From NCBI GenBank assembly GCA_002771515.1, contig PCTL01000001.1, forward strand, positions 7,995 through 71,994: a DNA stretch of 64,000 nucleotides. The letters run 5' to 3'. The position numbers were made by a program, and so were the translations under genes. Numbering within the stretch: position 1 is the first letter of the stretch; each line of letters begins with the position of its first letter. The notes below the pieces were generated by a model that saw only the letters and a program-made list of their open reading frames with translations, made no database searches and was not told the origin of the DNA. Below, in pieces: positions 49,511 to 49,982 of the stretch. The stretch comes from Candidatus Lloydbacteria bacterium CG22_combo_CG10-13_8_21_14_all_47_15. GTDB lineage: Bacteria; Patescibacteriota; Minisyncoccia; Phycocordibacterales; 21-14-all-47-15.

Positions 49511-49764
49511 TATTTTATTTTTTAATTTTTAAATTTATAGTTTGTTCTCCGCGCGCAGTATATTTTTTGCGAGCTTTGCGCGCAAAGTTATCCACATTTT
49601 TGTAAAAATATTATTGTTTTTGTGTACGCAGTGTATGATAATAAAAATAATTGCAATAAACACAAACGCAAAAAAATTTTTAATTTTTAATTTTTATTTT
49701 TTTAAAATTTTTTTGCATGGTCGAGTTTATCGCGTTCGTTAGAAATTAATCTCTTTATATTCTT

Positions 49765-49914
49765 ATGGCACGAAAACGAAAAGTTGCAAAAAAGGCGGTG
49801 AAGAAGACAACGAAGAAACGGAAGACAGTTAGCCGAAAGAAAGCGGCACCGAAGAAGAAGACAACCAAGCGCCGCACGACCAAGCGCAAGACAGTACGCC
49901 GCAAAAAGAAGTAA
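49765..49914 (+). CDS. 49-aa extremely Lys/Arg-rich protein (histone H1-like or ribosome/nucleoid-associated basic protein)
   Basis: MARKRKVAKKAVKKTTKKRKTVSRKKAAPKKKTTKRRTTKRKTVRRKKK*. It is not in the ORF track because it is under 60 aa. It is preceded by a roughly 250-nt AT-rich region and followed by its own terminator. Confidence 0.6.
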   Translation: MARKRKVAKKAVKKTTKKRKTVSRKKAAPKKKTTKRRTTKRKTVRRKKK

Positions 49915-49956
49915 TTGCTTCTACAAAGGCAATGTATTGCCTTGGTACCGACAAAA

Positions 49957-49982
49957 CCCCGCTTCCTGCGGGGTTTTGTGTT
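49957..49982 (+). terminator. rho-independent terminator
   Basis: CCCCGC-ttcct-GCGGGG followed by TTTTGTGTTT. Confidence 0.8.

Follow-up and report, generated by a model that had tools for sequence, protein, structure and literature searches.

The closest described counterparts of the gene reported here are small or repetitive basic proteins of bacteria. The chlamydial protein Hc2 varies in size through lysine-rich pentamers (PMC2848022), ScvA/Hq1 of Coxiella burnetii is a very small, very basic DNA-binding protein linked to a compact cell form (PMC4766238), and the histone H1-like tail of AlgP can also act on or organise polyphosphate (PMC9239181). Here we describe an open reading frame (ORF) of 49 codons that lies between murB and secA in a 64,000-nucleotide (nt) stretch of the genome of Candidatus Lloydbacteria bacterium CG22_combo_CG10-13_8_21_14_all_47_15 (contig PCTL01000001.1), referred to throughout as the window, and whose predicted product resembles these proteins in composition. 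Patescibacteria, the phylum to which this organism belongs, account for a large share of bacterial diversity and have cells among the smallest known; to our knowledge, almost nothing is known of DNA packaging in them.

The ORF translates into MARKRKVAKKAVKKTTKKRKTVSRKKAAPKKKTTKRRTTKRKTVRRKKK, a peptide with a calculated isoelectric point of ~12 and a calculated net charge of ~+28. Lysine and arginine fill 29 of its 49 positions (59.2%), slightly under the figure of more than 60% given by the initial annotation, whose start (ATG 49765), stop (TAA 49914) and 49-residue product otherwise stand. Nearly all of its residues are K, R, A, T, P or V, and acidic (D/E) and aromatic residues are absent altogether. 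AlphaFold models the peptide as two plain helices with a predicted template modelling score of 0.35, which argues that it has no globular fold. The same annotation had described the gene as unannotated. This is true of the ORF track with its 60-residue cut-off but not more widely, the exact protein having been called as a gene on six metagenome contigs of the Joint Genome Institute (JGI); the three of these loci that were retrieved (L001-L003) carry DNA identical to that of the window.

Because similarity searches are blind to so short a peptide once composition is corrected for, we found its relatives by synteny: relatives of SecA were fetched from genomes and metagenomes, and their flanks were scanned for ultra-basic ORFs. 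The nearest SecA relatives are 65-69% identical, and SecA across ~30 Patescibacteria loci is 54-69% identical. An ultra-basic ORF on the secA strand, with the N-terminus MA(x)KKRK, was present in 27 loci including the window, among them one Candidatus Vogelbacteria genome and one Paceibacterota genome. The slot it occupies in these relatives is murB - X - (hpf) - secA, and in the majority of them murB is the gene directly 5' of it. In four more loci (L012, L036, L117 and L087) the ORF is nearby, on the opposite strand or opened by a GTG start, and in L036 and L117 it is the whole unit of promoter box, leader motif GGTCGR, ORF and terminator that lies on the other strand; at SecA loci from outside Patescibacteria, an ultra-basic ORF was found in none. 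When a strict ultra-basic ATG-to-stop filter was applied to 1.40 Mb in six frames, it returned 33 ORFs, 29 of which are this gene itself or stand in its position in other Patescibacteria, whereas four are spurious; within the window, the small ORF is the only one to pass. The initial annotation had named absence or a disrupted frame in relatives as grounds for refutation; its proposal survives this check, the ORF being kept in frame across these ~30 loci. By its conservation, the 49-codon ORF is a genuine gene, and a monocistronic one, of a Paceibacteria-type Patescibacterium.

The comparison also strongly supports, at the level of sequence, selection acting on the peptide. Positional orthologues range from 13 to 114 residues, and the long ones are built by in-frame repeats with periods of 15, 30, 33 and 90 nt, every one a multiple of three. 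The 13-residue version, MAKKRKAAKKKKR, is present on four contigs. Two loci with the same 13-residue peptide, L093 and L094, differ from each other by three synonymous and no non-synonymous changes, and their flanks have diverged. Codon use differs from that of the adjacent secA: AAG makes up 65% versus 44% in secA, GCA plus GCT 91% versus 44%, and CCA 81% versus 26%. Pooled over the orthologues, the composition is 42% K, 22% A, 16% R, 6.5% T, 5% P and 5% V, again without acidic or aromatic residues.

The sequence upstream of the gene is the 254-nt intergenic region 49511..49764, with 24.0% GC (guanine plus cytosine) as against 47.7% for the window and with TTTTAATTTTTA tracts at 49520 and 49678, much as the initial annotation had it (a very AT-rich region of roughly 250 nt with repeated tracts). 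This region is more than a spacer: it holds a conserved predicted promoter and leader. In 25 of 30 related loci a TTATCC(A/C)CA box on the strand of the gene precedes the ATG by 102-201 nt, and of the 26 such boxes in 207 kb of related loci, 23 sit at the position of the small gene. A -10 hexamer ([G/A/C/T]ATAAT or GATACT) follows 38-43 nt past the box in each of the 22 box-bearing loci examined, and the box, leader motif and terminator are retained by the L036 and L117 units despite their other strand or place. The conserved box, -35 and -10 elements bear out the earlier proposal that the gene has its own upstream control region; in the window, the sigma-70-like promoter predicts a transcription start near 49649. 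The box itself, TTATCCACA, is a putative DnaA site, which another regulator could also recognise. On its 5' side it is abutted by the palindrome CTTTGCGCGCAAAG, and GCGCGC adjoins the box in L012, L093 and L134 as well. Because a perfect DnaA box lies here in AT-rich DNA, an oriC was considered and rejected: the box is single, the GC skew does not change sign at the locus but is positive throughout the surroundings of 49.6 kb, and DnaA boxes with at most one mismatch occur in the window at chance level (15 versus 12.8 expected).

At its other end the gene is closed by an intrinsic terminator whose core, CCCCGC-ttcct-GCGGGG-TTTT, spans 49957..49977. The 3' region folds at -34.5 kcal/mol versus -16.9 kcal/mol for shuffled sequences (z = -6.4), and none of 200 shuffles did as well. 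A terminator of the same build (A-tract, GC stem, T-tract) follows the ORF in 27 of 27 positional orthologues and in L012, L036, L117 and L087, so that both the clean terminator read by the initial annotation and its conservation in related genomes hold. TGnTAnnnT-type elements lie just 5' of secA in relatives, as one does in the window. Taken together, the sequence evidence strongly supports an independently transcribed unit. An antisense, Phe-rich ORF of 49 residues, 49755..49904 (-), overlaps the small gene, and similar ones are found in L015, L016 and L095; the frame is open because the DNA is rich in Lys codons and is not evidence of a second gene, against which the (+) orientation of the promoter also speaks.

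A leader of ~115 nt is unusual for this genome, in which a -10-like hexamer stands only 10-20 nt from the ATG of most genes; in relatives the predicted leaders are ~40-140 nt. The leader is predicted to form an A/U-rich hairpin followed by a single-stranded GGUCGR. In the window it folds at -16.9 kcal/mol (z = -1.6), and the TTTTAATTTTTA tracts supply the arms and loop of the predicted hairpin. Of 27 loci, 23 carry GGTCG(A/G), for the most part at a distance of 36-68 nt from the ATG on its 5' side; L036, L117 and L087 have it too. When pairing probabilities were pooled over relatives and compared with dinucleotide shuffles, three departures stood out: the 8 nt 5' of GGUCGR pair upstream (0.68 versus 0.32), GGUCGR itself is unpaired (0.53 versus 0.36), and its 3' flank pairs upstream (0.47 versus 0.23). 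None of 100 shuffle sets reached any of the three means. An outer stem closes around the hairpin and GGUCGR in ~11 loci including the window. A first, cruder test for a contiguous stem closing around GGTCGR was not significant (mean 7.0 versus 6.4 in shuffles), alignment of seven leaders with MAFFT and RNAalifold gave no consensus structure, their loop lengths differing too much to align, and Rfam returned nothing for the leader at gathering score and only terminator-like chance matches at E<=10. GGTCGA was also considered as a general promoter element and rejected: its spacing to -10-like hexamers varies, and the motif lies ~70 nt inside the predicted transcript.

Family searches, to which the initial annotation had looked for an assignment, place the peptide in no family. 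The window protein has no match in Pfam or NCBIfam (E<=10) and none among PDB sequences (phmmer, E<=10); two word-indexed phmmer searches found none, an exhaustive phmmer search of 1.84 billion representatives gave 0 matches, and an exact-sequence cluster look-up of 10 orthologues came back empty. The only models that match any orthologue are those of the Hc2 and H1-like families, all below threshold: long orthologues score 9.9 and 20.9 bits against Hc2 (PF07382, cut-off 40), 15.1 bits against the NCBIfam Hc2 model NF038052 (cut-off 135) and 10.7-18.8 bits against the Burkholderia-type H1-like family NF038053 (cut-off 80), to which the window protein has no match. Against Hc1 (PF07432), neither the window protein nor any of five orthologues matched at E<=10. 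With all scores far under the cut-offs, membership in the Hc1, Hc2 and Burkholderia-type H1-like families was rejected, and the earlier suggestion of an H1- or Hc1-like protein holds for composition but not for family. Among ribosomal proteins, bL34, bL36, bS21, bS22, bL37, bTHX and eL41 gave no family match by hidden Markov model (HMM; Pfam and NCBIfam), and no ribosomal chain was matched in the PDB. In the literature open to searching on H1 or lysine-rich proteins of Patescibacteria and Parcubacteria, on ribosomes of the candidate phyla radiation and on promoter motifs, we came upon no account of the gene, the box or the leader.

As no sequence search gives a family, the functional assignment rests on composition, joined by repeat behaviour and analogy. 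We propose the following sequence of events. Transcription would start at the sigma-70-like promoter (-35 TTGTTT at 49614, -10 GATAAT at 49637), with the TTATCCACA box at ~-60, and would yield an RNA in which a leader of ~115 nt forms an A/U-rich hairpin and then a single-stranded GGUCGA; the transcript would end at the intrinsic terminator (49951-49979), before secA's own promoter. The product, as the comparison of relatives supports, is a 49-residue polycation of ~+28 without a globular fold. Because of its composition, its lack of a fold and its free length variation, we take the peptide to work by charge, as a non-specific binder that neutralises polyanions. Chromosomal DNA is the most likely of these, and the peptide would thereby help to compact the nucleoid of an ultra-small cell, a role in which we place roughly even confidence. 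Its mode of action would be like that of the C-terminal tail of linker histone H1, of chlamydial Hc2 and of Coxiella ScvA. Since charge and not fold would be selected, length would be free to drift from 13 to 114 residues through in-frame, pentamer-type repeats. More speculatively, the DnaA-box-like site may tie synthesis of the peptide to the replication initiator; there is precedent in the regulation of a nucleoid-protein operon by DnaA (PMC9879097). A bolder version strikes us as unlikely: that the peptide, down to 13 residues and a charge of +9, is a principal counter-ion or condensing agent of DNA or RNA in ultra-small cells and belongs to a hitherto unrecognised regulon, marked by a DnaA-box-type promoter element and a new mRNA leader (hairpin and GGUCGR), that also takes in type IV pilus and competence genes. 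If true, DnaA and DNA uptake would be tied to the packaging of the genome or the handling of DNA.

Several points weigh against a nucleoid role. Transcription, translation and DNA binding are all predictions from sequence, the composition would suit a binder of RNA, ribosomes or polyphosphate just as well, and a nucleoid protein of 13 residues, as MAKKRKAAKKKKR would be, is very short. The leader of ~100 nt, sometimes longer than the ORF, suggests that the RNA itself may be functional; the next gene in some relatives is hpf, which encodes a ribosome hibernation factor; and the other perfect boxes in the window stand at type IV pilus and comF genes rather than at replication genes. The main rival, to which we give a real if minor chance, is a ribosome- or RNA-associated micro-protein, either a lineage-specific tiny ribosomal protein or an RNA chaperone, that fills a groove of the rRNA. 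The proteins eL41 (25 residues), mycobacterial bL37 and bS22 and Thermus bTHX are of this kind and of similar size and charge, and a strong promoter with a terminator is typical of abundant products. Moreover, an hpf-like gene stands immediately downstream of the small ORF, before secA, in L015 (3538-3939), L016 (3489-3848) and L109 (2582-2956), recognised there by its N-terminus MKIQIKSTNIELN only and not by HMM, and the structure of the leader could serve autoregulation by mimicry, as in the leaders of ribosomal proteins. However, the tiny ribosomal proteins that we know of have fixed lengths, and a nine-fold variation by tandem repeats (13 to 114 residues) argues against a fixed structural ribosomal protein; the G, H and aromatic residues that are usual in peptides buried in rRNA are also missing from the small peptide, and neither a ribosomal family in Pfam or NCBIfam nor a ribosome chain in the PDB matches it. 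Parcubacteria have A/K-rich extensions on uS19 and reduced ribosomes (PMC9297842), which speaks for the ribosomal alternative. It is quite unlikely, in our judgement, that the transcript acts mainly as an RNA, as a small or dual-function RNA whose hairpin and GGUCGR are functional and whose ORF is secondary or serves stability only. The 13-residue versions, in which coding takes up 42 of ~230 transcribed nt, would suit such a molecule, as would the conservation of GGUCGR with its adjoining hairpin, significant against shuffles, and the occurrence in L015 of the same box at the head of a ~70-nt, terminator-ended transcript without an ORF. Yet the ATG, the Ala codon after it, the frame and the polycationic composition are kept in ~30 loci while nucleotides and length change, substitutions of AGA to CGA and of GCA to GCT are synonymous although they alter the RNA, and Rfam holds no match. 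The same leader motif, moreover, heads an ordinary protein gene (the pilin at 24936) and for that reason looks like an mRNA leader element.

The position of the ORF, 102 nt 5' of secA on the same strand and with a terminator between, raises a cis-acting leader peptide for secA, either by SecM-type arrest or by transcription attenuation at the terminator that follows the ORF. Ribosomes can slow down on stretches of Lys and Arg codons, which would favour such a role. Upstream ORFs 5' of secA are, besides, a known regulatory class, for which the features of Sec monitoring have been defined (PMC10987492). Those features are lacking here: the sequence has no signal peptide, transmembrane segment or any hydrophobic stretch, and no conserved C-terminal arrest motif or spacer of more than 30 residues, the C-termini being K/R runs and some members only 13 residues long. 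Reading of the 3' region shows no evident antiterminator pairing; beyond the terminator, in the window and in relatives, comes an extended -10 that belongs to secA itself, and this pair of elements argues that the small ORF is no SecM-like upstream ORF. Finally, other genes intervene in some relatives (hpf in L015, L016 and L109, a reverse-strand gene in L106), and the L036 and L117 units face the other way. The SecM-like or attenuator idea is thus largely refuted, and we consider it very improbable. Distinctly improbable, too, is a polycation co-regulated with type IV pilus and competence genes that works in taking up or handling DNA, or at the cell surface, and not on the resident chromosome. 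What recommends it is the setting of the three remaining perfect TTATCCACA boxes, found between comF (-) and pilM (+), 5' of a pilin-like gene and at one promoter of an unassigned product, and the GGTCGA that the pilin leader carries ~30 nt before its ATG; but this draws on four sites in one window, the spacing from box to promoter differs among them, the peptide has no signal sequence, and pilus genes are unlinked to the small gene in related loci. Hardly credible, lastly, is that there is no gene at all, only a frame left open by chance in a purine-rich spacer, or a piece of a replication origin. Lys-codon-rich DNA is indeed open in several frames, the antisense 49755..49904 included, and the AT-rich region does hold a perfect DnaA box. 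Against this, position, strand, frame and N-terminus are kept in ~30 loci with synonymous change, the promoter is directed to the + strand, and the GC skew and box counts given above are those of neither an origin nor a box cluster; conservation and GC skew refute it. A nucleic-acid polycation, most likely acting on DNA, remains the reading that we prefer.

The features of the locus are collected in Table 1.

Table 1. Coordinates of the small gene, its predicted control elements, its neighbours and the perfect boxes in the window
Feature	Position	Strand	Remarks
murB (upstream neighbour)	48482..49510	+	Pfam FAD_binding_4 and MurB_C; gene also called there in L001-L003
Perfect 14-nt palindrome CTTTGCGCGCAAAG	49574..49587	.	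abuts 5' side of TTATCCACA box
TTATCCACA box, perfect DnaA-box consensus	49588..49596	+	~-61..-53 from predicted transcription start
-35-like hexamer TTGTTT	49614..49619	+	TTGTnn 17-18 T-rich nt after box in most loci
-10 hexamer GATAAT	49637..49642	+	17-nt spacer from -35
Predicted 5' leader, ~115 nt, AT-rich	49649..49764	+	extent inferred from -10 position
Closing stem P0 (AUAAAC/GUUUAU)	49653..49733	+	encloses P1 and GGUCGA
Leader hairpin P1, 13 base pairs, A/U-rich	49668..49716	+	minimum-free-energy pairs 49668-49680 with 49704-49716
Leader hexamer GGTCGA (GGUCGR)	49719..49724	+	46 nt before ATG
Small ORF	49765..49914	+	ATG to TAA; 49-residue polycationic peptide, 5.9 kDa, 59% K+R
First 3' hairpin, 7 base pairs	49926..49943	+	
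Intrinsic terminator	49951..49979	+	A-tract, 12-base-pair stem with 7 G-C pairs, T-tract
secA's own extended -10, TGGTACAAT	49985..49993	+	read from sequence
secA (downstream neighbour)	50016..52514	+	Pfam SecA domains on called gene
Perfect TTATCCACA boxes in the window	17377-17385, 24795-24803, 35718-35726, 49588-49596	-, +, +, +	

The window holds four perfect TTATCCACA boxes, all intergenic, where ~0.5 would be expected by chance. They lie between a comF-like gene (-) and pilM (+), 5' of the pilin-like gene 24936..25436, at the promoter of an unassigned product and at the small ORF, a distribution that suggests a regulon, of DnaA or of another factor, to which type IV pilus and competence genes belong. 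The probable type IV pilus cluster at 17442-28545 (+) includes pilM (17442..18668), a T2SS-F/PilC-like gene (23572..24777) and the pilin-like gene, as Pfam confirms. Like the small ORF, the last has a leader, here of ~90 nt, with a hairpin at ~24868-24897 and GGTCGA at 24905-24910 (+), 31 nt before its ATG; GGTCGA occurs only four times in the window, each time on the + strand. The unassigned product belongs to a gap of ~880 nt without a long ORF (35428-36305), in which the box is followed by a good promoter, TTGCGA-N17-TATAAT (~35731-35763); it could come from a small ORF or be a non-coding RNA. Among the relatives, L015 has, at 2573-2700, a second TTATCCACA box 6 nt before a consensus promoter, TTGACA-N17-TATACT, at the head of a terminator-ended stretch of ~70 nt without an ORF, a candidate small RNA.

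Some further observations concern the window as a whole. Three 4-nt palindromes are rare in it: ACGT occurs 2 times (~163-248 expected), TCGA 39 times (~217) and GATC 70 times (~231), an extreme avoidance that fits restriction-modification pressure; the conserved GGTCGA contains the avoided TCGA. A Shine-Dalgarno-like motif lies no farther than 20 nt from the start in only 7 of 45 long ORFs, and many ORFs have a TAnnnT -10-like hexamer 10-20 nt 5' of the ATG, which points to very short leaders and to initiation independent of Shine-Dalgarno pairing. A gene for transfer-messenger RNA (tmRNA) is found at 212-595 (-), with an Rfam score of 137.9 bits.

At 13-49 residues in most lineages, the small gene falls under the length threshold of many gene callers, and its composition makes homology searches blind to it; it is nevertheless among the most rigidly organised units nearby, with promoter box, leader motif, ORF and terminator all conserved. 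If the peptide is a polycation of the nucleoid or the ribosome, a missing abundant component would be added to models of Patescibacteria cells, and the gene would be an extreme case of selection on charge alone. We know of essentially no elements that control transcription or translation in this phylum. The DnaA-box-type site at ~-60 and the leader of hairpin and GGUCGR would offer handles on both in an organism poor in Shine-Dalgarno sequences.

How, then, does the peptide compare with known systems? The tiny ribosomal proteins eL41, bL37, bS22, bTHX, bL34 and bL36 share with it size (13-49 residues), charge density and, probably, abundance; unlike them, with their fixed lengths and family HMMs, it varies nine-fold in length and matches none. 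With SecM-type arrest peptides it shares a place immediately 5' of secA on the same strand, but it lacks both a signal or transmembrane segment and an arrest motif, it is predicted not to be transcribed together with secA, and other genes intervene in some relatives. ScvA/Hq1 of the Coxiella small-cell variant is likewise tiny and very basic; DNA binding has been shown for it and is predicted here, a sequence relationship is undetected, and ScvA is developmentally regulated and comes from an intracellular gammaproteobacterium. The composition of ScvA also differs from that of the small peptide.

A further likeness is to the lysine-rich polycations. With the C-terminal domain of eukaryotic H1, Pseudomonas AlgP and NF038053, the peptide has in common ~40% K and ~20% A, with P and T besides, the want of a fold of its own and simple predicted helices; unlike these H1 and H1-like proteins it has no globular or winged-helix domain and is far shorter, and common ancestry is unsupported. 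With Hc2 (HctB, PF07382/NF038052) and Hc1 it shares a K/A/R-rich, low-complexity sequence without acidic residues, and with Hc2 also pentamer-type lysine-rich repeats whose number, and with it the length of the protein, varies between strains or lineages; for the long orthologues, Hc2 is also the best-scoring model, if below threshold. The features that mark Hc2 and H1 tails, a K/A-rich and low-complexity sequence, short in-frame repeats and length polymorphism, were all found in the orthologues. At 165-237 residues, Hc2 is larger than the peptide (13-114 residues), phylum, gene context and control region differ, and DNA binding by the small peptide is a prediction only. Our best reading is that the peptide represents a new family of polycations of the H1-tail, Hc2 and protamine-like kind that would bind nucleic acid, much smaller than those described and without demonstrable homology to them, and set apart by a distinctive, conserved control region.

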